Shown piece by piece: positions 1,046-63,110 of a stretch of 64,000 nucleotides of DNA (the first letter of the stretch is position 1; every line of letters starts with the position of its first letter). Both the position numbers and the translations under genes were made by a program. Origin of the DNA: a virus. The notes beneath the pieces were generated by a model. The model saw only the letters and a list, made by a program, of their open reading frames with translations. It searched no databases and was not told the origin of the DNA. The stretch spans positions 446 to 64,445 of IMG/VR virus record IMGVR_UViG_3300045988_173593. One strand, written 5' to 3'.

Positions 1046-1231
1046 TCATCCTTCGCCGTCGCCGTCGCCGTTGCCGGAGCCGTTGCCTTCGCCGTAGCCG
1101 GAGCCGTCGCCGTTGCCGGAGCCGTTGCCGTAGCCGGAGCCGTCGTCGTAGCCTTCGCCGTTGCCGTCGCCGTGGCCTTCGCCGTAGCCGGAGCCTTCGC
1201 CGTGGTGCTTAGTCCTCAATAAATTTTTCAT
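1046..1231 (-). CDS. glycine-rich low-complexity protein (G-[EDN]-G-[SY] repeats)
   Basis: Periodic GCCGTN-type DNA repeat. The minus frame gives GEGSGYGEGHGDGNG...; internal ATG at 1231 follows the stop of the upstream gene. The Arg-rich reading 985..1212 on the opposite strand is taken as an artefact. Confidence 0.3.
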   Translation of the reverse strand: MKNLLRTKHHGEGSGYGEGHGDGNGEGYDDGSGYGNGSGNGDGSGYGEGNGSGNGDGDGEG

Positions 1232-3178: not shown

Positions 3179-3231
3179 ATTGCAAAAGAAGCTTAAAAGA
3201 ATAACTTTGAAAAAATAATGACACCATGTTA

Positions 3232-3257
3232 CCATTTTCCCCGTACGGGGAAAATGG
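3232..3257. terminator. perfect 12-bp stem hairpin CCATTTTCCCCG-TA-CGGGGAAAATGG
   Basis: Seen in sequence, between the repressor gene and the next ORF. There is a T-run on the minus strand side. Confidence 0.45.
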
Positions 3258-3275
3258 ACAAAAAAGGGAAACGGC

Positions 3276-3551
3276 ATGGAAGATGAAATTAAATTTCTGA
3301 AAGAACGTATTGCAAGACTGGAAGAACGTATCCAGTATGCAGATGAAAAAATAAGATCCAATAAGGTATCTGTTTATTTCATTTTTTTAATCTTGATAGT
3401 GTTCTTTTTTCTCGTGATGGAATTATACTATCGGGACGGAGAAAAAGCCGAAGTCCTTAAGGTGCTTGATTCAAAAGAGACAACGGAACAACGTTATATG
3501 CTGATGGATGATAAAAGGGAGCAGATAAAAAGTGGCACTCAGAATCATTAA
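3276..3551 (+). CDS. small coiled-coil plus single-TM protein
   Basis: N-terminal heptad-like LKERIARLEERIQ, then hydrophobic VYFIFLILIVFFFLVM. Confidence 0.4.
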   Translation: MEDEIKFLKERIARLEERIQYADEKIRSNKVSVYFIFLILIVFFFLVMELYYRDGEKAEVLKVLDSKETTEQRYMLMDDKREQIKSGTQNH

Positions 3552-4635
3552 AAACAGATACTATATGTATTTCCGGGACGAGCACGGAAAGCTCCGGACA
3601 ATTGCCACTCATGCTTCACTTAATGAAAAAGAAGAGGCTCTGGCGTTTGAAAAAGAATACATGACACAACTTCGTGCCAAAAAGCGACGCCTCCGGATTT
3701 TAAAGGACTTCCCCGAATATGTCGCCATCCAGCCGGAAGCCAAACCGGATTTTGTAGCGGAAGCCCAGCAGCAGAGACGCGGAAGTATGAAATTATCTGA
3801 AATGTGGGAAACCGCTTGTAAATACAGGCAACTTTCCGACACTCATAAAAAGGCGTTGGAACGCTTCATAAAATCAACAAAATTGAAGTATGTATCTGAT
3901 GTAACTCCCCAAATTGCACTTGCCTACCTTACAAATACCTATGGAGCAGGGAATGGAAAAACATTCAATAATAATAAAACATACTTGAATACTATTTTCA
4001 AACTTTGTGTTGTGGAGTCTGGTATTTCTGGTTCTCCTTTTGATTCAGTTTTGAATATGCGCTTGAAAAATGTTGAAGTCCACAGGAAAATAACAGTTGA
4101 AGAGTTCAACCGTCTGTTTCATGCCGCTGCTGAACCATGGAAAACAGCCCTTTTAATGTCATGGCATACAGGAATGAGGGTAAGTGATTGCTTTACCTTG
4201 AAATGGGACGAAATTCAAGGTGATGCGATTATAAAAATTCCTAATAAGACATTGCGCTTCAATCGTTCTGTTTATATCCCAATACATAAAGAGTTGCAAG
4301 ATCATTTGAATACATTACCGAAGCCAAAAGACAAAAAACAAGCTGTTTTATCGCCGTTTCTTACATCAAGATTCAAACGGGTTTCCGGTGCTAGAATGCG
4401 CTATATCCAGAATCTTTTCAAAACATGTAAGGTTTTAGATACAAAAGATGGAAAAGCCAGCTTTCACAGTCTTCGTGCAACGTTTATTACACGTTGCGAA
4501 GAAGCGGGAATTCCCCGTTCGGCAATTCGTGGTATGGTAGGTCATGTATCCGATGTTACAACAGATAATTATAGTCAGGACAAGGTAACTCCACGCCTGA
4601 TATTAAACTTGCCATCTGTATGTAAAAATGTATGA
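3532..4635 (+). CDS. int: tyrosine site-specific integrase
   Basis: C-terminal catalytic region HSLRATFITRCEEAGIP...GHVSDVTTDNYSQ (R..H..R..Y pattern of the phage integrase family). Located next to the repressor and att. Confidence 0.88.
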   Translation: MALRIIKNRYYMYFRDEHGKLRTIATHASLNEKEEALAFEKEYMTQLRAKKRRLRILKDFPEYVAIQPEAKPDFVAEAQQQRRGSMKLSEMWETACKYRQLSDTHKKALERFIKSTKLKYVSDVTPQIALAYLTNTYGAGNGKTFNNNKTYLNTIFKLCVVESGISGSPFDSVLNMRLKNVEVHRKITVEEFNRLFHAAAEPWKTALLMSWHTGMRVSDCFTLKWDEIQGDAIIKIPNKTLRFNRSVYIPIHKELQDHLNTLPKPKDKKQAVLSPFLTSRFKRVSGARMRYIQNLFKTCKVLDTKDGKASFHSLRATFITRCEEAGIPRSAIRGMVGHVSDVTTDNYSQDKVTPRLILNLPSVCKNV

Positions 4636-4661
4636 GTATATTATAATTTTATACTTAAATA

Positions 4662-4690
4662 GCAGGGTTCGATTCCCTTCACCCGCTCCA
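4662..4690 (+). other. tRNA 3'-end fragment (T-arm GGTTCGATTCC, acceptor 3' strand, CCA): candidate att core
   Basis: GGGTTCGATTCCCTTCACCCGCTCCA lies 27 nt after the int stop. No complementary 5' acceptor strand upstream, so this is not a full tRNA. Confidence 0.5.
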
Positions 4691-4953
4691 TATTTTTATT
4701 CTGTTTGAGTTCAAAATATAGATTTTTTGGCTAATCCTCGCTCAAAATATCAGCCTCAATATTAATTTGCAATGTATGTAGTAATGTATGTAACTCCGAT
4801 AATAAAAATAAGCGGTATCACGCCATTTCTCAATAGCAGTGATACCGCGTTGGATACATCAAAGAAACAAAATCCGTTCCGCAAATTCAGGATCAAACTC
4901 CCATAAAGCTTCAAAAATTTTGTTTTCTTTGAAAATATAATCCATTCTGAACC

Positions 4954-6945: not shown

Positions 6946-7686
6946 ATGGATGCGGTTCCGATTTACAACGTAAATCCCGGTGCTGGAAGCGGTTTCAACG
7001 GCTGGGAAGCAATGGCGCTTTTGAACAATGGCAACAGAAACAACGGCTGGGGTGACGGCGGCTGGTGGATCTGGATTCTTCTCCTGTTCTGCTTCTGGGG
7101 CTGGGGTGGTAATGGCTGGGGTGGCAATGGAGGACGCGGTGGTTGCGGATGTTGCTGTAACTCCGGAATCGGTGCTCTCGGTGCCGATCTCGCAATCACT
7201 GACGCAACCAATATTGCGGAAATCAAAGCCGGTCTCAACTATACGGCACAGACGCAGGTGGGACAGACCAATCTGATGGGGCAGATCAAGGACAATATGT
7301 TTGCCGGTTTTGCCAATCTGAACAATGCGGTAACAAACTCCGCATTCCAGAATCAGCTCGGCCAGCGCGATCTTCAGGCTCAGATTGCGTCCTGCTGCTG
7401 CAATACCCAGTCCAGCATTGCGGCTGTGAACAACAACATCACACAGCAGTTCGCCCAGCTGAATTACAACAACGCGATGCAGACTTGCGAAGTCAAGCAG
7501 GCCATTGCGGCAGAAGGCGCGGCGACTCGTGCGCTTATCAATGCGCAGTACACACAGAACCTGGAACGCCAGCTGGCGGAATCCAAACAGCAGCTTTTCG
7601 TTTATGAAAAGTTCGGCCGTTATGCCAATAACGGCTGCTGCGGATCGACTCCTGCTTGCGGCTGTGCTTGCGCGACGGGTTGCTGA
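6946..7686 (+). CDS. Gly/Trp/Cys-rich membrane-anchored protein with Q/N-rich coiled region
   Basis: GWGDGGWWIWILLLFCFWGWGGNGWGGNGGRGGCGCCCNSG; C-terminus CCGSTPACGCACATGC. Confidence 0.4.
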   Translation: MDAVPIYNVNPGAGSGFNGWEAMALLNNGNRNNGWGDGGWWIWILLLFCFWGWGGNGWGGNGGRGGCGCCCNSGIGALGADLAITDATNIAEIKAGLNYTAQTQVGQTNLMGQIKDNMFAGFANLNNAVTNSAFQNQLGQRDLQAQIASCCCNTQSSIAAVNNNITQQFAQLNYNNAMQTCEVKQAIAAEGAATRALINAQYTQNLERQLAESKQQLFVYEKFGRYANNGCCGSTPACGCACATGC

Positions 7687-8166
7687 TGTTTTCCGTGACT
7701 CCCTGTTTTTTAACAGGGAGTTTATTTGAACTTAACTCTTAATAGGAGAATGAAAAATGGCTTGCAGACGTAATTTCTTTTGTCGCTATGCCCTTGGCGC
7801 TCCGGTTGTCGGATCAGCGAATGTCATTTATTCGATGCGAACAACCCTCTGCCGCTTGATGAATCAGGATTTGTTTATTGTAACAATTCCTGCTTCGACA
7901 ACTTCAACACTTCCTCCGCAAGTGCAACTTTGCAACGGAACCGTGTTGCCGATTGTCTTTTCAAGCACGGAAGCAGCGGCACAGGCATCCGGCCTGCTTG
8001 GCCAGCGTGCCTATCTCGCGACAATCCTTTGCGTAGATGGTGCGCCGACGCTGAACATTCTGAATGCAATGAATGCCGCTACGGCTTCCGCCTGATGCTG
8101 GCTGATTGATTCTTTTTCTGTTTCCCGGCTGAAATATGCCGGGTTTTATTTATTTTGAGGTAAAAT

Positions 8167-8718
8167 ATGAACGATATTTTTATCTGTAAACTGGACTTTG
8201 ATACATATGCCCGCGAACTTGCAATTCCGGTTGCAATTAGTTGCAGGTTCGGAAAATGCCATGACTTCGGCAATCCTCAAAGAGATTGCAAGGCGATCTT
8301 TGATACAGGGGCAACAGCCTCAATGATCTCCTCCGATATTGCAAATGAATTAGGGCTGATACCCTATGATACAGCAACTGTTTCTGGAGTCCACGGAACA
8401 GAGTCATCCAATATTTACATCATTGACATGATCTTCCGTAACGGGTTCAAAATACCGAATATCAGTGTTTCGGAGGCGGGAGGCTCAGCCGGCTTCGATC
8501 TTCTCATCGGAATGGATATTATCTCTAAAGGGACAATGCTTCTTTCCGGATCCCATGGCAGAACATTTTTTTATTTTGCTTATCCGTCTCAAATCAAACA
8601 GCCTGAACCTTTGCTTTCATTGCCTTCAGAGCATTTTCCAGAGCTTGAATCATCTTGCAATCGGGCTTGCAGCGTGTGCAATCTCCATGACATGAAAAAT
8701 TCAGAACCAGCTTTTTAG
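8167..8718 (+). CDS. retropepsin-like (clan AA) aspartic protease domain protein
   Basis: IFDTGATASMISSDIANELGL contains the D-T/S-G-A active-site signature, followed by LLIGMDII. Confidence 0.5.
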   Translation: MNDIFICKLDFDTYARELAIPVAISCRFGKCHDFGNPQRDCKAIFDTGATASMISSDIANELGLIPYDTATVSGVHGTESSNIYIIDMIFRNGFKIPNISVSEAGGSAGFDLLIGMDIISKGTMLLSGSHGRTFFYFAYPSQIKQPEPLLSLPSEHFPELESSCNRACSVCNLHDMKNSEPAF

Positions 8719-8998
8719 CTTGGCAATCAGAACAAAGCCCGCTTCTCAGTTCACATTTTTCACATGCTTTTCGGCAATGATAACAACTGACCTTACCCTT
8801 CCGTTGCGCCTTGATACATCGGTTGCATTCGAGTTCTTTCTTTTTCTCGCAAACATGCGATTTGCTGTAAAGATACCGTATCCCGACTTCCGACCGTTCG
8901 ATTTTATCAGGTGCTCCGAGATAATCTCTTGTATAGCGCAAGCTGGAAAATCCGAGGATTGCCGCCGCCTCTTTTGATGATAGCAATTGTTCCTCCAT
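8594..8998 (-). CDS. excisionase/MerR-like HTH with C-terminal multi-CxxC zinc-finger region
   Basis: N-terminal SKEAAAILGFSSLRYTRDYL; four CxxC pairs (CYHCRKACEKC, CSDCQ, CHGDCTRCKPDC). Confidence 0.45.
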   Translation of the reverse strand: MEEQLLSSKEAAAILGFSSLRYTRDYLGAPDKIERSEVGIRYLYSKSHVCEKKKELECNRCIKAQRKGKVSCYHCRKACEKCELRSGLCSDCQAKKLVLNFSCHGDCTRCKPDCKMIQALENALKAMKAKVQAV

Positions 8999-9000
8999 TC

Positions 9001-9330
9001 TTACCTCACACGATGCACAACGGTTCCATTTTCAAGAACTTCGGGCATAAACTTTTCTTTTTCGATGATTTCTGCTCTCCGTGCGGCATTTTCAGCAATC
9101 CACGGCATTGGATCAGAATCATCTGTCAAAGGATTGGAGCGTTTTTTTATTTGCATGATTTTCATATAGGGGGCGTGCATTTCTTCCAAAGCATGAGGCG
9201 GTCCGAGTTTTGGAGTATTCCAATAGGCAAAATAAGGTTTGTCTTCAGAACTGAATTCAATGATAAAATCTTTGCCGGGAATGGCATCCGGCATTAATGT
9301 TGTAACAACCTTTTCCAGTTTTTGCTTCAT
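9001..9330 (-). CDS. hypothetical protein
   Basis: 109 aa ORF. Confidence 0.45.
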   Translation of the reverse strand: MKQKLEKVVTTLMPDAIPGKDFIIEFSSEDKPYFAYWNTPKLGPPHALEEMHAPYMKIMQIKKRSNPLTDDSDPMPWIAENAARRAEIIEKEKFMPEVLENGTVVHRVR

Positions 9331-9413
9331 GCTTCATTCTCCTGTTTTTTTTCAAAAACATAAAGCAAGACACTGATTTTCAAAAGTCCGGAAAATAAGT
9401 GTTCCGTTATTTA

Positions 9414-9503
9414 TGTGATCGTCGTGTGACTGTCACGTGATCGTCGTGTGACTGTCACGTGATCGTCGTGTGACTGTCACGTGATTGTCGTGTGACTGTC
9501 ACG
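9414..9503. repeat. 4 x 22-bp tandem repeat GTGATCGTCGTGTGACTGTCAC, each carrying the palindrome GTGAC-T-GTCAC
   Basis: Seen in sequence; junctions form CACGTG. Confidence 0.85.
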
Positions 9504-9518
9504 TGACAAGATATGCCA

Positions 9519-9926
9519 TTATCTTCTTGCTCGTTCAAGTGTCTTTCTGGCATTTACGTATGCCCTCTGAGCCTCATCAGCTTGTGAAATTATATTATCT
9601 GTTCGTATTTTGAATTCATAAAGTTCTCTCCTGAGAGCATCCATATCACGCAAGGCAGTCCATCCGACAAAGAGAGAAATTAAAGATATTGTGATTGCGA
9701 CAACAACAGAAATTTTGATGTCACTGTTTCTTTCTTTGATGAAATTATTACGTTCATCCAATCTGCCGAGTTTTTCTTCCGTTCCTGAATTGCAACTTCC
9801 GAGTGCCATTTTTTCATTCCCTTCTTTTTTGTTATTTTCATTTTTGTTGAGGATTTCATCCAGTTTAGGAGCAACCTTGCTTAAAGCGCAAGGGGTTTTG
9901 CATTCTCCACAGTTATGATCGCACAT
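9519..9926 (-). CDS. N-terminal Cys cluster plus single-TM protein (holin/lysis-accessory candidate)
   Basis: CDHNCGECKTPC; TM segment ISVVVAITISLISLFVGW. Confidence 0.4.
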   Translation of the reverse strand: MCDHNCGECKTPCALSKVAPKLDEILNKNENNKKEGNEKMALGSCNSGTEEKLGRLDERNNFIKERNSDIKISVVVAITISLISLFVGWTALRDMDALRRELYEFKIRTDNIISQADEAQRAYVNARKTLERARR

Positions 9927-10784: not shown

Positions 10785-11139
10785 CGAGCCATTCTGTAGC
10801 GTCCAGTTCAGCTTGCTTCGCAGGAGCCTCCAACTTCTTACGCCGGAATGTCTTCATCAGGAGATATTTCACGAGCCCCATCACGTGCCGCTGGTAGGCG
10901 TGATAGAGCTCATGGATTACGCTCCCGAAGAACACCTCATCCGACCGGTCACCGGCTATTTTAAGCGTGTCCGTCAGGGCGCAATACATTGCTGTAACTA
11001 CACCCTCAACGCCAAATTTCAGAGGCTCGTCTGGTATCTTCTGCCATGCAAACTCATTCAGCCAGTCGGCTCGTCCGGAGTCAGCGTATTTCCAAGTGTT
11101 GCAGTATAGTTGAGTGTTCATGATTTTATTTACCTTCAC
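10726..11139 (-). CDS. HExxH motif protein (putative small zinc metallopeptidase)
   Basis: VIHELYHAYQRH. Confidence 0.45.
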   Translation of the reverse strand: MKVNKIMNTQLYCNTWKYADSGRADWLNEFAWQKIPDEPLKFGVEGVVTAMYCALTDTLKIAGDRSDEVFFGSVIHELYHAYQRHVMGLVKYLLMKTFRRKKLEAPAKQAELDATEWLGDRRIKQWKEKHENEHCNT

Positions 11140-12947
11140 ATGTCATAGGTTTCCAGTTCAACAATGGTAGGATAGTTTGCAGCTACGGTAATGTCTGCCA
11201 ACCTATGGTAGTAGTAGCTCTTGCTGTTCGAGAACGTGAACTCTTTCCACTCATATCCAGTAGTCCATGTCAAGCCTGACGCAGTATACAAGTCTGTCCA
11301 TGTGCTGCCGTCATCAGAGCCCTGAAGGATGAAAGAGGTGATAGCCTGCTGTGCGATATCACCGGAAGCTGTACCCTGAAATCTGAGCTTCTGCACAAGC
11401 ACTGGTTTCGTCTTATTTTGCCACTGAAGCCACCACGAAGAATTTGATGCTCCTGTCCATCCAGAAGAGCTACCTGTTACCCCGTCGAAGGCTTTCCACG
11501 GAGCAGAGTTAGTGCTGTAGAAACTGCTGGCACTGATTTCCCACTCGTCGGAGCTCTCGCTGGTCATGCCGGTAGGACTGGTCAGCGTTGGCGTGCCTGT
11601 GTAAAGCAATGACACAATCACCAATGCATCCGCGCTGTAGATTCCGCCGACGACCGGCGTGACGCTGGTATATGCCAGCCCCGCTGTGACATCGCTTTCG
11701 AAACTCCACGTTCCGGCTGTCGAGTCGAATACCGCCTTGTAGCCGCTCCATGTCTTCGCGGATACGTCCACGCTGGCGCACTTGTAATACTCCGCCGAGG
11801 TGCCGCCTGTGCTTTCGCCCTCATACGTTCCTGCGACATTGAAGATAGTTACGCCGCTCTTGATATTTGCAGCAGTCAAGTTCGTATCACCTGCGACGGT
11901 AACTTCTCCCTTGAGATACGAACCTTTAGAAATTACTTGTGCGTTTGCCGCCGGTGTAATCGTAAAAGCATTCAACGCGGTTCCGACTGTCAGTGTTTGC
12001 GCGCTCTTAACATAGCCCTTTGGCACTGTAACAACGTTATCAGACATTGAGGCTGTCACTGTGGGGATTGTGCCTGTTATCTTTTCGTCCTTAGCGTATG
12101 CCGTCTTGTCCTGTAAAATATCGCTGGCTGTCGCTGTCGCGTCGCTGGTGTCCGTTCCGGTGCTGATTTCGTTTACCGCATTGGCACACTGGTACAATGT
12201 CGAATCCTGCGCCAGACTTCCGCCTTTGGCATTGATCGCCGTCACGAGCGCATCACGGGCGCCGTCCAGAGCCGAAAGCACAGTATCGAGCGAGCCCCCT
12301 GTAGTGCTGAACTCTTTGGATAGCTCTGTGATTTCGCTATCACTAAGAGCACGGTTGTAGACGCGGCAGGCGGCAAGGTAGCCGGTCATTTTTGTATCTC
12401 TCCCAATAGAACCTGAAGAAGTAAAGTTTGTGCCTAAAGCAATACCAGCCCCGATTGTTGCGGAAAATGTCCGGCTTGCTGAAAGATTACCGTCTACATA
12501 TAATTTTTGTGTTGTTCCGTCGTATGTGCACGCAATATGGTGCCAGCCATCTTTAATATTAGTCGTAGCATCTATTAGGTTTTCATCAGACCCGTTTTTG
12601 TAGGTATATAATCTAGGATACCCATTATTTGTCATGACTTCCATGTTATGACTGTTAGTCCACGGTCCTAACGCAAACAAGCAGTCACCTGATTGGAAAT
12701 AGGCATGGAATGAAAATGTGAAAGCATCTGCAACTTGAAAAGAGTTGTTATAAAGCGCACTGCTTCCATCAAAATAGGCACACTGCCTGCCTCCAAAAGT
12801 CTGAAACGTAACTGAACCTGAATTTGTGAGCGTATATGCACAATCTGCATTTTCAGCCAGTGGTGCATAAAATACAAGTCCATTTGTTGGTATTGCCATA
12901 AATAACCTCCTTAAGTTAATCTGTTGTGACTGTCCAACCACGATCAA
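11136..12947 (-). CDS. tail fibre / receptor-binding protein
   Basis: 603 aa, S/T/G-rich beta-like composition. N-terminus MAIPTNG is paralogous to the next gene. Located in the tail module. Confidence 0.55.
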   Translation of the reverse strand: MIVVGQSQQINLRRLFMAIPTNGLVFYAPLAENADCAYTLTNSGSVTFQTFGGRQCAYFDGSSALYNNSFQVADAFTFSFHAYFQSGDCLFALGPWTNSHNMEVMTNNGYPRLYTYKNGSDENLIDATTNIKDGWHHIACTYDGTTQKLYVDGNLSASRTFSATIGAGIALGTNFTSSGSIGRDTKMTGYLAACRVYNRALSDSEITELSKEFSTTGGSLDTVLSALDGARDALVTAINAKGGSLAQDSTLYQCANAVNEISTGTDTSDATATASDILQDKTAYAKDEKITGTIPTVTASMSDNVVTVPKGYVKSAQTLTVGTALNAFTITPAANAQVISKGSYLKGEVTVAGDTNLTAANIKSGVTIFNVAGTYEGESTGGTSAEYYKCASVDVSAKTWSGYKAVFDSTAGTWSFESDVTAGLAYTSVTPVVGGIYSADALVIVSLLYTGTPTLTSPTGMTSESSDEWEISASSFYSTNSAPWKAFDGVTGSSSGWTGASNSSWWLQWQNKTKPVLVQKLRFQGTASGDIAQQAITSFILQGSDDGSTWTDLYTASGLTWTTGYEWKEFTFSNSKSYYYHRLADITVAANYPTIVELETYDM

Positions 12948-13701
12948 TGAGTGTCTGTTTATCTGTTAATCCCTGACCAGTTGGTGGTGCTGATGTTTCC
13001 TGATAGTTTATGTCCAAAGTTCCATTGGTTTTCGCATTCAAGACAAGCGATGCCAGTATATTATTCACAACATCAGAGGTAAATTTGTTAGAGTAGGCGG
13101 CAAGGTATTTTAATGCTGTGTTTTGCGCTATATTCAGCATAGTTAAACCGTTATTATTGCACGCTAACGTCATTAGGTTTGCATTATTACTGATATCAAG
13201 AGCTGACAAAGCGTTCCCCTTACAATCCAGTGAAGTTAATGTGGGACATAAACTTATGTCGATGGATGTTAATGTGCTAGTCGTACAATTTAATGCTGTA
13301 ACTGCTCCTTGTATCGTTGTTGTTCCTGCTGACAAGGTAAATTCAGCAGGGAATTCCGTATAGGTCTGGGATGTAGCTCCATTTGTTACAATGACAGAGC
13401 CTGTTGCATTGATTGCTACTTTACTTTGTCCTTGTGATCCGCTTTCTGATACGAGTGTAATTATTTCATCTCCTGGTTCTCCGCCTCCTGTCGGCGTCCC
13501 GATGATCGCCATTGCGTCGGATTCAAATGCGGATGTGTCGCCGCCGGAACTTCCGGAACTATTCGCGAACGGGATGAAGAACTTATTGTTGACCAGCAAG
13601 CCTTTCTGATTCGCTGTCGGCTTGGAAGTGCTCAGAAAGAGCCCGTCGATCACAACCCCGGTGCCACAAACAACTCCATCTGTCGGTATCGCCATAATCA
13701 A
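12916..13701 (-). CDS. tail fibre protein with leucine-rich repeats
   Basis: LTSIDISLCPTLTSLDCKGNALSALDISNNANLMTLACNNNGLTMLNIAQNTALKYL shows LxxLxLxxN periodicity. Confidence 0.55.
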   Translation of the reverse strand: MIMAIPTDGVVCGTGVVIDGLFLSTSKPTANQKGLLVNNKFFIPFANSSGSSGGDTSAFESDAMAIIGTPTGGGEPGDEIITLVSESGSQGQSKVAINATGSVIVTNGATSQTYTEFPAEFTLSAGTTTIQGAVTALNCTTSTLTSIDISLCPTLTSLDCKGNALSALDISNNANLMTLACNNNGLTMLNIAQNTALKYLAAYSNKFTSDVVNNILASLVLNAKTNGTLDINYQETSAPPTGQGLTDKQTLIDRGWTVTTD

Positions 13702-15977
13702 GCCTCCTCTGCTGGGATGTTGAAGTCATAGAGCACGGTCTGCGCGGAACCGCTATAGACGCTGGAACCGTCCGCCGAAACCGTAACCGTCCGGATGGAA
13801 ACGGTTTTCGTGGACTCGTCGCCGTCCGCCTGCGCAACCGCGAACTGCAACCCGGCGGCAAGCGAACCTTGCAGCGTCCACGCGCCGGAAGCCTTCAGAT
13901 ACAGATTCAGTGCGTTGGTGTCGAGATAAAAATCACCGTCCGTGCCGAGCTCATTTGACGGCGCACCTGTCCCGTTGAAGATCGTTTTTCCGTCCGTGCC
14001 TTCCGCCTTGACATTGGTATCGGTTTCGCCGATCATCCAGTGCTTTGTGTCCGGGTCAATGCTCGGAGTCAGCCCGTCGGAACCGTCCTGACCGTCCGTG
14101 CCATCCGTGCCGTTCGTAACCGTAAACGTTGACGTCGTTTCATCAGTATAAGTGATGGTGTAGGTATCAACATTGCCGCTGGTTCCGGTTTTTTCAATGG
14201 ATGCGATTCCACGGCCGTCCGAGCCGGTTTCTCCCTTCGCGACAAGGAGCGTCCAGTAGTCGTTCGAGACAGTCGCCGCACTCGCGGGCGGAGCGTTGCC
14301 GGAACCGGCAGCAGCGTTGATGTATCCCCAGAGCGAGCCGTTGTATTGAACGGCATCCATTGCGGTGTCGGTCTTCTGGTAAGTCGAGGCGGCATCATAC
14401 GCGCCGCGCACTGTCAGCCCGGTTCCGTCGGAGCCGCGATAGGCATTGAAAAAGTCGTCGAGGCTCTTTCCTTCGTTGCCCTCCTGTTCCAGCCAGAGCT
14501 GATACGCTGATTTGCCGTCCGCGCCGTCCGCGCCTTTCGGGATTCCAAAACTGAAATGAAACTCTTTCTCCGTATTCTCGCCGGATGCGGTAATGCTTGC
14601 CGTGGCTTCGCTTCCCGCCGCCAAAGTTTCGGCTGTTGCATCCGGAGTCCCGAAACCGGCGCTGGTTCCACTGGTTCCGTCGTTTCCGATATACTTCACC
14701 CAGACCGCACCGCTGAAATCTTCGGCGTCCGGACTTTCAACCTCTGTTTCGGAGTGTATTTCCGCGCGATATTTCAACGTGTCGGAAGGCGTGAGGCTGA
14801 ACCCTGTCCCGCTTGCGTCGGAGGCATACGCCACATACATATAGGAACTGGAACCCGCCGTTCCCTGTTGCCCGAGAATCCGGATTGCACCGCTCCAGCT
14901 TCCGCCGTTGTCGTTCGATGTTCTCATATAGGCGTCGCCCCCGGCATATTCGTCATGCCAGAGCGTCGAACCGTCCACGCTGTATTGCGTCTTGAGTTCC
15001 GGCGCGGGAGTTCCGTCTTCGCCCGCCGGTCCTCTGGGGATATACATGGCGTCCGACCAGTCCGCTCCGACCACGGAAATTCTCTGCCGGTAATATTGGT
15101 CCGTCTCCTGATTTTGTATATCATGCCAATCAGTTGATCCGTCTGCGCTGAACTGGAATTCAAACTTGTTTCGGAGAAGCGACAATACCCATGACTGGCT
15201 TGCTATCCCCATTGCATTGGATTCCGGGACATCTGCCGACCTCTGAAAGGCGATTGGTTTGTTGATATAGATTCGGAACTGGAATCGTTTGATCGTTTCA
15301 CCGTTGGAAAGAATCGCATGTTCCGCTGTAAGTTGCAGAGATTCGGTGTTTGTGAACTCAAAGTTCTCCATGAGTTTGTCGGACATGGTCAGGAAATGAA
15401 CTCCGAAGATACCTTCCGACTTTCTGGAATCATCCACATAGTTCACGGCGTTTGTTTCCGCGTCGTAATCGCCTTCCGCAAGAATCATAAGGCTTTCGGG
15501 AACCGAAACCGTCGCGCCTTCTTCAAACGCATAATCGGCGGTTTCCGCCGCGCCGAGTGTAAAGGCATAACCTTTTTCTATTGCGCTTCTTGAAACATAA
15601 GCGAAGCTCTGTTCTTCTCCGCCGGCGTTTCTGAGCACCAGGACACCCGTTTTCGGGATATACCGTTCTGTCGCGGAGACTTCTACGGAAATACTGGAAA
15701 CGCTTCCACCGGATTCAATTGCGGAAAGATTCTTTCCCTCATAGCTGGAGATGAAATTGTTGTCAATAGCAAAGAGTGACGATACCGACATGCTTTCAAA
15801 GCCGGTGTAAGGCGTCCATTCCGATGGCGTTTCGGAGGTTCCTCCGTCCGTCACATAGTGAATCTCATAGTCTTCCGTGTTTTCCAGATAGGAAATCAGT
15901 TGATTCTGATTTGCAAATGGAGCACCTTTTGCATCATAAATGTCGCCGCTGGTAAAATCAATATAAATGATCTTCAT
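13698..15977 (-). CDS. large tail/baseplate protein with short collagen-like G-X-Y tract
   Basis: 759 aa; GPAGEDGTP and NGTDGTDGQDGSDGLTPS. Confidence 0.55.
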   Translation of the reverse strand: MKIIYIDFTSGDIYDAKGAPFANQNQLISYLENTEDYEIHYVTDGGTSETPSEWTPYTGFESMSVSSLFAIDNNFISSYEGKNLSAIESGGSVSSISVEVSATERYIPKTGVLVLRNAGGEEQSFAYVSRSAIEKGYAFTLGAAETADYAFEEGATVSVPESLMILAEGDYDAETNAVNYVDDSRKSEGIFGVHFLTMSDKLMENFEFTNTESLQLTAEHAILSNGETIKRFQFRIYINKPIAFQRSADVPESNAMGIASQSWVLSLLRNKFEFQFSADGSTDWHDIQNQETDQYYRQRISVVGADWSDAMYIPRGPAGEDGTPAPELKTQYSVDGSTLWHDEYAGGDAYMRTSNDNGGSWSGAIRILGQQGTAGSSSYMYVAYASDASGTGFSLTPSDTLKYRAEIHSETEVESPDAEDFSGAVWVKYIGNDGTSGTSAGFGTPDATAETLAAGSEATASITASGENTEKEFHFSFGIPKGADGADGKSAYQLWLEQEGNEGKSLDDFFNAYRGSDGTGLTVRGAYDAASTYQKTDTAMDAVQYNGSLWGYINAAAGSGNAPPASAATVSNDYWTLLVAKGETGSDGRGIASIEKTGTSGNVDTYTITYTDETTSTFTVTNGTDGTDGQDGSDGLTPSIDPDTKHWMIGETDTNVKAEGTDGKTIFNGTGAPSNELGTDGDFYLDTNALNLYLKASGAWTLQGSLAAGLQFAVAQADGDESTKTVSIRTVTVSADGSSVYSGSAQTVLYDFNIPAEEA

Positions 15978-43455: not shown

Positions 43456-44040
43456 ATGATTACAATCAAATTTATGGATGATAGAAAGTCGATTGAGATA
43501 GACGCTGAAACAATTGTCGAAGCATTAGAAACGGCGCTCTCTGATGGTGTTGACTTACGCCATGTAGACTTGCGCGGGGCTTGCTTGACCGGTGTTGACT
43601 TGCGCGATGCCTGCTTGCGCGGGGCTTGCTTGACCGATGCTGACGTTAGCTATGCTGAGTTGATCGGGGCTGATTTGACCGGTGCTGAGTTGACCCGTGC
43701 TGATTTGACCGGTACTGATTTGACCGATGCCTGCTTGACCGATGCTTGCTTGCGCCATGCTTGCTTGCGCCGTGCTTGCTTGACCCGTACTGATTTGACC
43801 GGTACTGATTTGACCGATGCCTGCTTGACCGATGCTTGCTTGATCAATGCTGATCTGCTCGGGGCCTGCTTGACCGATGCTGACGTTAGCTATGCTGATT
43901 TGACCGGTGCTGATTTAACCCGTGCTGATTTGACCGGTGCTGATTTGACCCATGCTGATTTGAGCGGTGCCCGCTTGACCGATGCTTGCTTGATCGATGC
44001 TTGCTTGATCGATGCCTGCTTGACCGGTGCAATTCGATAA
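43456..44040 (+). CDS. pentapeptide-repeat protein
   Basis: Roughly 30 consecutive A(D/N)LxG-type pentapeptides (ADLTGADLTRADLTGADLTHADLSGARL). RBS AAGAGGTGA. Confidence 0.8.
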   Translation: MITIKFMDDRKSIEIDAETIVEALETALSDGVDLRHVDLRGACLTGVDLRDACLRGACLTDADVSYAELIGADLTGAELTRADLTGTDLTDACLTDACLRHACLRRACLTRTDLTGTDLTDACLTDACLINADLLGACLTDADVSYADLTGADLTRADLTGADLTHADLSGARLTDACLIDACLIDACLTGAIR

Positions 44041-55560: not shown

Positions 55561-56820
55561 TTATCTCGCAATCGGACTGTATTTCTGCCTTGAGTCATAT
55601 CCGGTGCCGTTCCATATCAATTCGCATTCCAGGTGCGGCATGTTGCGCTCCTTGTTCGAAACCAGCGCCGTCCGGTTCGTCTTTCGGTCGCGGGTCATGA
55701 AGAACACCGCGTGCGCCAGTTCCCCGATATACCCGGTGCCTTTCAGGTGTTCCAGATCGGGTTCAACTTTCACGCCTTCCTTGCGGTTCAGCTGCGCAAG
55801 CACAATTCCCGCCGCGTGGAGCTCCGCAAACATCGCGTGAAGTTCATCGGTGCAGTAGTTGAGCTGACTTAAACGATCCTGCCGCGCCATATACGCCGGG
55901 GCTTTCAGATTCTGGAAAAAGTCGATGATGATCAGATCCAGCCTGCCGTATTCTGCGATAATCCGTTTCGCCTCGCCGCGTATCTTCTCCGGCGTGTTGA
56001 TTCGCGTCTCATTCCCGCGGATGAACAGCGTGTCGGAATACTCCTTGCTGATTCTTGCGCTTTCCCTTGCAAAGTCATGTAGACGGCGGTCTCCGTAATC
56101 GTTGACGATGTAATGCGGAATTCCGGAAAAAACCGCCGTGATGCGTTCCATGATATCAATGCTGCTCGATTCCGTGCAGAGATACAGCACACGGTTGCCG
56201 AGCAGGAGATTCGTTTTCGTGATGGAAGCCGCAAGAGCCGTCTTCCCCTGTCCTGACCGGCAGCCGATCACATACATGTCGCCGCGCTGATGTTTGATCG
56301 CAATCCCCGCCTCGGTATGCTCATCAAACCACGGAACGCAATTGTTCACGCTGTGCTGAATCTGATCAATCATCTCCGCGGCAAGCTCGCGGGTGGTCTT
56401 CGTGTTCGCGCCAGCCATGATTTCCTGCGCTTCGGATTCGGCTTTCAGCCAGAGATCAAGCGCTTTTGCCGCATCGGGTTCCGCCTTGACGGTCTCCGCC
56501 GCCCGAACAAGTGCCGCTTTCGCCGCGTCCGCCTTGAAAAGACGAATCCAGCTTTCAATTCCGGCGGTCGAAGCCGCCGCGCTCTGAATCTCCATCAACA
56601 CCGCGCCGGGATCGGTAACACTTGAACCGAGTTCACCCGCAAGGTCTGTCAGTTCCACGGTGCCGGAAACGCGGTATTGCTTCTCCGCCGCTTCAAACAG
56701 CCGCCGGTGAACAGGCGCTTCAAACAGCTCCGCCCGGACTCCCTGATTGCGGAGCATGTCGATGTAATCGGGCTCGATCATGACAGCCGCAAGCAATTTC
56801 TGTTCATTTTCAAAACTCAT
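55561..56820 (-). CDS. DnaB-like replicative helicase
   Basis: Walker A GCRSGQGKTALA; Walker B LDLIIIDFF; DnaB N-terminal-like domain. Confidence 0.8.
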   Translation of the reverse strand: MSFENEQKLLAAVMIEPDYIDMLRNQGVRAELFEAPVHRRLFEAAEKQYRVSGTVELTDLAGELGSSVTDPGAVLMEIQSAAASTAGIESWIRLFKADAAKAALVRAAETVKAEPDAAKALDLWLKAESEAQEIMAGANTKTTRELAAEMIDQIQHSVNNCVPWFDEHTEAGIAIKHQRGDMYVIGCRSGQGKTALAASITKTNLLLGNRVLYLCTESSSIDIMERITAVFSGIPHYIVNDYGDRRLHDFARESARISKEYSDTLFIRGNETRINTPEKIRGEAKRIIAEYGRLDLIIIDFFQNLKAPAYMARQDRLSQLNYCTDELHAMFAELHAAGIVLAQLNRKEGVKVEPDLEHLKGTGYIGELAHAVFFMTRDRKTNRTALVSNKERNMPHLECELIWNGTGYDSRQKYSPIAR

Positions 56821-57620
56821 CTTTTCGCATCCAATCTCCGGAACACATCCGGTGTTTCATTGTCGTTTTCATCGTCGGAAAGATTCCATAGCGCCGGGTT
56901 ATCGTCGTAATGCCCAGCCTCAAAAAACTTCTCCATCGACCACGTGTAACGCTTCTTTGAGTCCGGAACATCCCGGTAGAACACGGCATAGTTTTTCACA
57001 ACCTCAAGCAGACGTGTTTCAGCCTCCTTCAGACTTTCGCTCCCGTCAATGAGCCGTTTCAGGACTTTCAGCGCGGAACGTTTTCCGGCTTCCATTGCAA
57101 ACCGTTTTGGGTATGCGGCAGCCAGTTTTTCCACAGCCTGAACAATCCTGATGTCTTCCGCCGGGGTCTTATCTGGAACAACTGAAGATTTTTCCGCTTC
57201 TGCTTCTTCGTCACGAAGTGACACTTTTTTTAGAGACGTAGTCTCTTTTTTTATTTCCCTTTCCCTACGCGCGTGGGAGCATGAATCAGTACCGTTTTCA
57301 GTACTGAAATCTGACTGATTAAGATTCTTATTCAGTACTGATTCAGTACCGTTTTCAGTACTGAAATCTTTCTTGTTCAGCGCCTTGTTATGATAGTAAT
57401 TTTCATTGTTCTTTTGTCTCCTGATGTTCATGTCAACAGACGGCTTGATAAGCTCAAATATGACCTTGCCGTGCCCTTTCAGAACCGGTTCCGTTCCATA
57501 CAGAAAATACTCCATGTAGGCACTGTAGAAGCGTCCTTTTTCGGCATCCGACAATCGCGATTCCTTTACGGCTTTCACAACGGATTCAAACACTGTTACA
57601 GTCTTGTATTTATTGCTCAT
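56817..57620 (-). CDS. replication initiation / helicase-loading protein candidate, with internal iteron-like repeats
   Basis: Position upstream of and translationally coupled to the DnaB-like gene. Contains 26-bp direct repeats with the palindrome TTCAGTACTGAA at 57286-57369. Confidence 0.45.
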   Translation of the reverse strand: MSNKYKTVTVFESVVKAVKESRLSDAEKGRFYSAYMEYFLYGTEPVLKGHGKVIFELIKPSVDMNIRRQKNNENYYHNKALNKKDFSTENGTESVLNKNLNQSDFSTENGTDSCSHARREREIKKETTSLKKVSLRDEEAEAEKSSVVPDKTPAEDIRIVQAVEKLAAAYPKRFAMEAGKRSALKVLKRLIDGSESLKEAETRLLEVVKNYAVFYRDVPDSKKRYTWSMEKFFEAGHYDDNPALWNLSDDENDNETPDVFRRLDAKR

Positions 57621-62159: not shown

Positions 62160-63110
62160 TCTTTTCTGCCGGTTCAGAGCAAAAAAGAAGGCTTGCGGGG
62201 TTGAACCACGAGTCACAAGTCTCGCCTGTCCGAAGACAGCCCCGCAAGCCAAAATAAAACGCTTGCATGAAAAAATCGGGAGTGTGCCGTTTGACGGTAC
62301 GACTGCCGCTTGTGAATCGAGTGGTTCAGACCCAATGCCTTTACAATAGCCTGAGCTTTCACCGAAGTCAAGCGGCTTTCTGAAAAAAGTTGCGATTTTT
62401 TTCGTGTCCGCGCTCTGCGGCGCGGCGGCGTCCCGGATCGGTATCCGGCTCGTGTGTCGGCAAATCATGGTTACCTCCTTCTGCAAAGGTTATTGATTGC
62501 TTTTTTGAGCCGTTTTCACGCGGGCACAAAAAAGGACTTGAAGAGGTTGAAAACACGGCAGAAGACGTGCGCCGATCCTTACGGGTACAGCCCTCTCCAA
62601 GTCCAATAATAGACCTGAGGTATAAATGTTGGGATTTGTTGCCTTGACGGAAACAACGCCCGCTTCTGCTTTCAGAGTTTTCAAGCTCCTTGCCTTTACA
62701 ATAATCGGCAGGGCTTGCGATTTCAAGCGGGTTTTCGGAAAAGTTGCGATTTTTTTCGTGTCCGCGCTCTGCGGCGCGGCGGCGTCCCGGATCGGTATCC
62801 GGCTCGTGTGTCGGCAAATCATTGCTTGCACCTCTATTGCTAAGGATTTTCGTTATCCTCTTTCGCGCCGTTCCAAGGGCACAAAAAAGGGCTTGAGGGT
62901 TGGAACACGTGACTAACGACACGCCAGCCTTACGGCTGCCCTCAAGCCCAAAATCAAAACACAATGATTCGGTCTTGTAAAAATTACGGGAATCGTGCGC
63001 CGAGTTGACGGAACGACTGCCGCGTTAGTAAAGGGGTTCCAATCCCAATACTGGGAATATAACTCTAAAACCCCGTAATATCAAACGCAAACTTATATTT
63101 TTTTTGAAAA
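62160..63110. repeat. three tandem units of about 350 bp, each with a long hairpin (stems 62190-62250, 62534-62604, 62889-62949); units 1-2 share an identical ~85-bp block
   Basis: Seen in sequence: GGCTTGCGGGG/CCCCGCAAGCC; GGACTTGAAGAGG/CCTCTCCAAGTCC; GGGCTTGAGGG/CCCTCAAGCCC. Confidence 0.8.

Follow-up and report, generated by a model that had tools for sequence, protein, structure and literature searches.

The window, by which we mean the whole 64,000-nt stretch of DNA that was analysed, covers almost completely the ~64.4-kb genome of a temperate tailed phage; judged by a 64,423-bp sister contig, at most ~445 nt of the genome is missing from it. The plus strand encodes a CI-like S24 repressor and an integrase, and the minus strand encodes RecT-like, DUF2800 nuclease, DUF6291, DnaB, methylase, sigma-like regulator, terminase, and portal proteins, together with ORFs at the usual positions of head, tail, and tail-fibre genes (assigned by position). 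The locus under study is an array of short tandem repeats between two minus-strand genes. In the direction of the minus strand, the tail-fibre genes are followed by two small ORFs, a 113-aa gene, and a 135-aa gene, from whose stop codon the array is separated by 11 nt; 12 nt after the array come a hairpin with a T-rich tail, an RBS, a 109-aa XkdW-like gene, and a 134-aa gene for a Cys-rich HTH protein. The features of the locus are as follows.

9519..9926, minus strand: 135-aa gene (one TM segment and a coiled coil), the last gene of a late/lysis-like operon.
9508..9521, minus strand: stop codon TAA of the 135-aa gene (9521-9519) and the 11-nt spacer TGGCATATCTT that precedes the first unit.
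9507-9497, 9485-9475, 9463-9453, and 9441-9431, minus strand: P units of the array, sequence read directly.
9496-9486, 9474-9464, 9452-9442, and 9430-9420, minus strand: Q units of the array, sequence read directly.
9419-9415, minus strand: terminal ATCAC, the end of the array.
9353..9402, minus strand: terminator-like hairpin, in which the stem ACACTTATTTTC (9402-9391) pairs with GAAAATCAGTGT (9381-9370) around the loop CGGACTTTT; T-rich tail at 9369-9353.
9001..9343, minus strand: RBS AGGAGA (9343-9338) and the XkdW-like gene (109 aa, 9330..9001; Pfam 3e-6), the first gene past the array and the terminator.
8594..8998, minus strand: Cys-rich HTH gene (134 aa), beyond the XkdW-like gene.

The array is non-coding and sits between the last stop codon of the late operon and the terminator hairpin, which is conserved across lineages. 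The two flanking ORFs (9519..9926 and 9001..9330) are 188 bp apart, in agreement with the ~190-bp gap given in a first-pass annotation made from the sequence alone. That annotation had put the repeats just upstream of "holin-like" genes, which are the 113-aa and 135-aa membrane/coiled-coil proteins. Because the flanking genes all lie on the minus strand, the array is in fact downstream of these genes and upstream of the XkdW-like gene and, because it lies 3' of them, it cannot serve the downstream lysis-region promoter that the same annotation had envisaged.

The tail-fibre genes, with Laminin_G_3 and F5/F8 type C domains (11136-15977 in the window, and contigs L001-L020), vary in number and length despite identical downstream genes, which represents swapping of a host-range module just upstream of the array. 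On the other side, a plus-strand block (6946-8718) encodes a Cys/Gly-rich membrane protein (phrog_16490), a 112-aa ORF, and a retropepsin-like aspartyl protease, and converges on the minus-strand HTH gene (8594-8998) with an overlap of 125 nt. This block could be a moron or defence cassette; PADLOC gave a weak PDC-M08B match for the aspartyl protease and no further defence match next to the array.

Repeats had been annotated at 9414-9503, and both Tandem Repeats Finder and direct reading confirm their presence, with the extent corrected to 9415-9507, where the minus strand reads as eight 11-bp units followed by the terminal ATCAC. The program reports 9415-9506 with a period of 22, 4.2 copies, 98% matches, and a score of 177, and also lists a period-11 row for the array. 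The plus-strand sequence GTGACTGTCAC occurs four times, always within the array, a count that was reached in 0 of 100 shuffles; the repeats are present far beyond chance. The array motif has no second copy elsewhere in the 64 kb, the CI/cro region included. On the minus strand, P units (GTCACGTGACA or ATCACGTGACA; formula (G/A)TCACGTGACA) alternate with Q units (GTCACACGACR; formula GTCACACGAC(A/G)). Each P unit contains a palindromic decamer, (G/A)TCACGTGAC, and every second unit of the array consists of the palindromic decamer GTCACGTGAC and a single spacer base. The decamer pattern GTNACGTNAC, with its ACGT core, fits the four P units, whereas the four Q units (GTCACACGAC) do not fit it. 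One Q and one P unit together make up the 22-bp unit described earlier. A period of 22 bp is borne out by the corresponding row of Tandem Repeats Finder, but the basic unit is 11 bp, and relatives have pure 11-bp arrays. Likewise, the phasing at two helical turns that was read into the 22-bp unit is seen here, but in this genome only, and represents a recent expansion of a polymorphic locus with a period of 11 bp.

The window contains other repeats of a different nature. Tandem repeats of 15/30/45/90 bp at 43546-44030 (Tandem Repeats Finder) arise because a 194-aa pentapeptide-repeat protein (A[DC]L[TR]x repeats; 43456-44040, plus strand) is coded there, and a 12/18-bp tandem repeat at 1053-1203 arises because of a Gly-rich 61-aa ORF (GSGYGEGNG repeats; 1046-1231, minus strand), for which the sister contig L029 has a gene call. 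A direct duplication of ~190 bp with 84% identity lies in the early region, close to the window end, at 62368-62557 and 62723-62909.

Exact-protein look-ups yielded ~40 contigs of the same phage group, which are differently permuted and without host flanks, and several of which come from human gut metagenomes. Among these relatives, the array comprises 3, 4, 6, 8, or 9 units, always whole units, between nearly invariant flanks. In lineage A1, defined by an identical 135-aa protein, four units are present in 18 contigs, six in two, eight in the window, and nine in contig L007, the array of which is a pure 11-bp repeat with six copies of GTCACACGACA between P units. The eight contigs of lineage A2 (135-aa protein 90% identical) have three units, which constitute a near-perfect 30-bp palindrome (TCGTGTGACAGTCAC followed by GTGATTGTCACACGA), and a similar palindrome of 32 bp is present in contig L040 (135-aa protein 89% identical). 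In L040, homology ends right past the terminator hairpin (window 9360), and a different integrase gene replaces the XkdW/HTH/moron block. As a side observation, comparison of L040 2528-2640 with window 9360 and 3229-3809 delimits a replaced block of 5 kb that runs from the XkdW-like gene to the C-terminal half of int; the L040 integrase shares the N-terminal part but joins it to a different catalytic half, and its ORF, as called, continues across the terminator hairpin and into the repeat element. Lineage B (seven contigs) has the same gene order, with a 140-aa orthologue of the 135-aa protein (43-45% identity) and XkdW-like (109-aa) and HTH (134-aa) proteins that are 83 and 86% identical, respectively, to those of the window; here a 91-bp gap contains a clean intrinsic terminator only, and the array is absent.

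In every array-bearing relative, the array is linked to the 3' end of the 135-aa gene. These comparisons lead to three conclusions: the array is a fast-changing minisatellite, with whole-unit differences among near-identical genomes; it stays with the late-operon 3' end instead of moving with the XkdW/HTH genes; and it is dispensable for this gene arrangement. A scan of JGI metagenomes with the right flank gave one true match (L251). Protein-based locus searches with the 109-aa protein against IMG/VR and with the 135-aa protein against GTDB genomes returned no relatives, an exact 33-mer had 0 matches in IMG/VR, and the P-Q junction pattern was absent from the same collection. Among 50,697 phage records, BLAST matched neither the 3.2-kb region nor the array nor a synthetic P-repeat; masking probably affected the repeat queries. 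A search of the full-text literature for the repeat sequences brought up only primers and eukaryotic E-box papers.

The variation among relatives bears directly on a possible reading in which the array is a neutral relic or minisatellite, that is, a palindrome-rich 3' untranslated region of the late operon that is driven by slippage and has no protein partner. Any likeness to origin iterons (see below) would then reflect past recombination with an origin, or coincidence, and the array would at most form an RNA or DNA hairpin that protects the late transcript or helps to end it. Consistent with this reading, genomes with almost identical flanks have 3, 4, 6, 8, or 9 units, the Q units are lineage-specific, and lineage B lacks the array despite the same gene order. 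Further, strong hairpins are predicted for all variants (-20.5 kcal/mol for A2, -24.3 for four units, and -42.4 for the window; z of -3.5 to -4.5), although a low folding energy is expected of any palindromic repeat. Larger array hairpins are accompanied by weaker terminator hairpins (-25.3 kcal/mol in lineage B, which has no array, -14.7 in A2, and -10.4 in A1 and the window), a trade-off that could be compensation at the RNA 3' end. The element of A2 and L040 is one long palindrome. A G-C to A-U double change occurs once (L011), along with each of its two single-step intermediates. However, the array hairpin has no U-tract and hence would be no terminator on its own, and Rfam gave only sub-threshold matches to generic (miRNA-)hairpins. 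An intrinsic terminator made by the array itself was rejected, since AUCACAUAAAUAACGG follows the array hairpin and the terminator-like hairpin with its T-tail lies 12 nt further downstream.

We scanned public collections with a pattern of three consecutive units (TCACRYGACNRTCACRYGACNRTCAC), which gave 73 loci, 49 of them in GTDB genomes and 24 in IMG/VR. At 22 of these loci, the match is enclosed by an ORF fitting the profile of a replisome-organiser N-domain (PF09681-type); tested examples gave E-values of 1e-39 and 1e-51 for Pfam PF09681 and of 5e-32 for TIGR01714. Other organiser-like genes with the same basic stretch ahead account for several more matches, for example that of L053, which has a DnaB_2 domain. 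The DNA of the organiser genes reads ...ATG TCACGTGACA GTCACGTGACA GTCACGCAAT GTCACGCAACAGA, followed by AGA-rich repeats, and codes for the recurrent peptide SRDSHVTVT. At 11-bp spacing, the P unit GTCACGTGACA is the repeat that PF09681 organiser genes have in their origin-bearing linker. We also drew an independent sample of 80 IMG/VR loci for which the N-terminal domain was the only criterion; GT[ACT]ACG arrays lie directly behind the domain in 59, and TCACGTGAC is present in 26. The repeat spacing in organiser genes is 10-12 bp, and the palindrome is kept in all three of the alleles GTCACGTGAC, GTAACGTTAC, and CTAACGTTAG (the last in L097); phi105 has repeats of the GTCACGTGAC type, and phi11 and A500 have repeats of the GTAACGTTAC type.

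Origin-like P-type repeats are also found outside coding sequence. In L095, two non-coding P-type clusters lie between the genes for a minor head protein and a scaffold, the position of oriR in SPP1; one of them is a full origin cassette, and the first matches the window array over 86 nt with 80% identity. In L097, a P-type array lies just upstream of an organiser gene whose own internal repeats are CTAACGTTAG. The low-complexity region of PF09681 (TIGR01714) proteins presumably reflects origin repeats, and by analogy the PF09681 organisers may recognise the repeats described here. The analogy is with organisers that bind direct repeats in their own genes, which are the origin, with phage-encoded resistance (PER) in trans, as for ORF13 of TP901-1 and Rep2009 of Tuc2009 (PMC8965321), and with gp38 of SPP1, which binds repeats inside its own gene that serve as an origin (oriL), a second, intergenic copy (oriR) lying in the late region beside morons (PMC6316719). 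The organiser genes of TP901-1, Tuc2009, and SPP1 carry other repeats, the Tuc2009 Rep is not a PF09681 member by profile, and the Tuc2009 record bears the note "contains origin of replication".

Overall, the array is like the PF09681-type origins (phi105, phi11, A500, and many gut Clostridia phages) in being made of tandem ~11-bp direct repeats, and its P units, though not its Q units, have the palindromic ACGT-core decamer, with GTCACGTGACA identical to their commonest allele. It is unlike them in that it is non-coding, lies far from the replication genes, has Q units interleaved, and occurs in a genome without a PF09681 gene. The GTNACGC/GTCACGC half-units and the AGA/ATA-rich tract of the usual origins are absent past the array, which is followed by ATAAATAACGG and then by the terminator hairpin; the 84 nt 3' of the array are 69% A+T without AGA repeats. 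In A2 and L040, a single P-like site is contained in the palindrome of 30-32 bp, which is more like a hairpin or an operator than an iteron array. By their sequence and spacing, the P units nevertheless belong to a known class of origin iterons, and we consider it rather probable that the resemblance is meaningful, be it through shared descent or through binding specificity. Iterons, which the first-pass annotation had offered as one alternative, gain support from the P units, whose sequence at 11-bp spacing is that of the PF09681 organiser repeat and recurs in non-coding ori-like regions such as those of L095, but not from the Q units, which match no known iteron class. The same data argue against a neutral relic, because tandem P-unit (TCACGTGAC) arrays were found with the pattern mostly in replication-related contexts, and an exact match of 11/11, with spacer and period included, is unlikely by chance. 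A fragment captured from an organiser gene was rejected as the source of the locus: the ~70% similarity of the flank to coding sequence for the organiser basic region is also present in the array-less lineage-B orthologue and is therefore native to the 135-aa gene.

The genome has no evident initiator of the matching class. Searches by tblastn and HMM/profile found no PF09681 relative in the window or the related loci, and a distance of 47 kb separates the array from the replication genes, which include the following.

56817..57620, minus strand: DUF6291 organiser-like gene, directly upstream of DnaB.

This gene contains, at 57297-57364, five or six palindromic copies of TCAGTACTGA / CGGTACTGAA at 11-12-bp spacing, which encode DFSTENGTES twice, are clustered at this site only, and occupy the same relative position in the gene as the organiser repeats. 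The segment 57297-57364 is probably the phage's own gene-internal origin. Its repeats differ from those of the array, and neither motif was found at the other's site. A remote homology of DUF6291 to PF09681 was rejected (hhalign probability 0.2%). Because there is no PF09681 gene and the phage's own organiser-like gene has different repeats, the array is an orphan relative to its apparent specificity class.

These differences weigh on the idea that the array is a second origin or a fork-arrest site of the phage itself, at which its own initiator would fire or forks would stall, leading to concatemer synthesis. The position of the array does match that of SPP1 oriR, the second, intergenic gp38-binding region: both are non-coding blocks of repeats within the late region, next to morons and signals for transcription (PMC6316719). 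The ori-like non-coding cassette among the head genes of L095 and the A+T-rich stretch after the array point in the same direction. However, the two origins of SPP1 share repeats (we verified the shared k-mers), those of oriR being the repeats inside gene 38, whereas the repeats of the array are unlike those of the DUF6291 gene (TCAGTACTGA, 57297-57364). In addition, the genome has no PF09681 gene, DUF6291 is not detectably related to PF09681, and lineage B dispenses with the array. We regard a second origin of the phage's own as very unlikely.

The first-pass annotation had also offered sites for a cooperative dimeric regulator, and in such an operator array, dimers of the 134-aa Cys-rich HTH protein, of CI, or of another regulator would occupy the phased palindromes and control read-through into, or initiation of, the XkdW-like/HTH operon. 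In favour of this, the palindromic units recur at intervals of one or two helical turns, the XkdW-like start codon is 85-175 bp downstream of the array, the HTH gene belongs to the same operon, and the palindrome of 30-32 bp in A2 and L040 has an operator-like shape. A weak promoter-like match (AAGACA-16-GATAAT; 9545-9518, minus strand) would have transcription begin just ahead of the array, but the region has four promoter-like matches against 4.2 expected by chance, and GATAAT is not kept in A2 or B. Moreover, the array is upstream of the terminator hairpin, which separates it from the downstream gene, and half-site centres spaced at 5-6 bp leave too little room for a standard HTH dimer. The distribution does not support regulator sites either: the motif has no other copy in the 64 kb, lineage B keeps the HTH (86%) and XkdW-like (83%) genes without the array, and, conversely, L040 keeps the array where the adjacent XkdW/HTH genes have been replaced by an integrase gene, so that the array and a local regulator gene do not co-occur across relatives. 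An operator array is accordingly an unlikely reading, and both it and a second origin of the phage's own are less likely than either an orphan iteron block or a relic.

Several further identities were considered and rejected. The lambda-type arrays of attP arm, Xis, or RDF sites resemble the array in being tandem direct repeats at about one helical turn, and in L040 the integrase gene abuts the element, a further likeness to them. The attachment site is, however, better placed elsewhere in the window.

~4655-4690: tRNA 3'-end fragment GGGTTCGATTCCCTTCACCCGCTCCA, directly after the integrase stop codon, in the probable attP region 4636-4800.

This fragment is the probable attP by its sequence; the TGTATGTA-type repeats that flank it, TGTATGTAAAAATGTATG (4617-4634) and TGTATGTAGTAATGTATG (4773-4790), may be arm-type sites. 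No complete tRNA was found in the window by ARAGORN, and the GTCAC motif is absent from the attP region. With attP at the tRNA fragment beside int, and with all contigs continuous across the array, the array was rejected as a set of attP or Xis sites. Plasmid type II centromeres, such as the 11-bp iterons of R1 parC and the four 20-bp repeats of pSK41 bound by ParR, are like the array in having tandem repeats of 10-11 or 20-22 bp, on one helical face and in variable number. A centromere was rejected because none of the 50 ORFs scanned against Pfam belongs to the ParM, ParR, ParA, ParB, TubZ, or TubR families and because the phage integrates; since it does so at a tRNA gene, a partition system is not needed. 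Equally, the array is not a pac site, as it lies 29 kb from the terminase genes and the contigs are differently permuted, and a Dam/GATC function was discarded because GATC is missing from several variants.

The reading that we favour, at a probability of roughly 0.4, is that the array is an orphan block of origin-type iterons that would bind replisome organisers supplied by other phages; the reading as a neutral relic or 3'-end hairpin is nearly as likely. In an orphan iteron block, an organiser-type initiator would bind as a dimer to each P decamer, and the phasing at 11 or 22 bp would put these sites on one face of the helix. With no cognate protein encoded in this genome, another phage present in the cell would have to supply the binder. 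The array may then titrate the foreign initiator, in the manner of the cloned origins of phage-encoded resistance, or, alternatively, the foreign initiator may replicate the genome that carries the array, in a form of piggy-back replication. Slippage would change the number of sites. Against this reading, we count that the Q units match no known iteron class, that lineage B is without the array, that a single-copy array in a prophage would titrate little, and that copy-number polymorphism would also be expected of a neutral variable-number repeat. We also count against it that PF09681 N-domains more than 90% identical can carry different decamer alleles, at positions 3 and 8 (L128-L207, L097, and L114-L117).

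A more specific version of the orphan iteron block is a natural decoy or piggy-back origin, in which the array would present the iterons of competitors' initiators (the PF09681 GTCACGTGAC class) at a dose tuned by slippage. Here, when a competitor infects the cell or is induced in it, the competitor's organiser would be titrated by the array or would fire replication of the resident genome. We hold this version to be doubtful. The comparison is with PER (Per2009, the TP901-1 ori, and the non-coding ori of Sfi21), in which, as in the array, origin repeats lie in trans to the initiator that recognises them and are expected to titrate it or to fire falsely. PER, however, is an engineered effect of multicopy plasmids, whereas the array is a single natural locus in a phage. 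To our knowledge, no natural single-locus version of PER inside another phage has been described, and a decoy or piggy-back origin, if real, would be the natural between-phage counterpart of the engineered phenotype.

If the array does bind foreign organisers, it would be a device for competition or hitch-hiking that consists of DNA only and can be recognised from sequence alone, and origin titration would extend from an engineered trick in dairy strains to the natural ecology of gut phages. If there is no such binding, the array still shows origin repeat blocks spreading outside replication modules as fast-evolving minisatellites. It is also a useful strain-level marker for this phage group.

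Elements of other kinds were met among the loci that we collected. At least 12 contigs of Paludibacteraceae MAG RGIG4829, a rumen member of the Bacteroidales, share a dispersed element, ...AATCACGCGTCAATCACGCGACAATCACGCGACAATCACGCGAGAACGGTACAGG, with an 11-bp period (L042, L051, L056, L058, L062, L065, L070, L071, L073, L080, L087, and L089), which is REP-, MITE-, or transposon-end-like. Long perfect palindromes of GTGAC/GTCAC modules, for example GGGGACACTCTGGTGACAGTCACGTGACCGTCACGTGACTGTCACCAGAGTGTCCCC, are present in L061, L066, L057, and L084, from Alphaproteobacteria and Isosphaeraceae MAGs.
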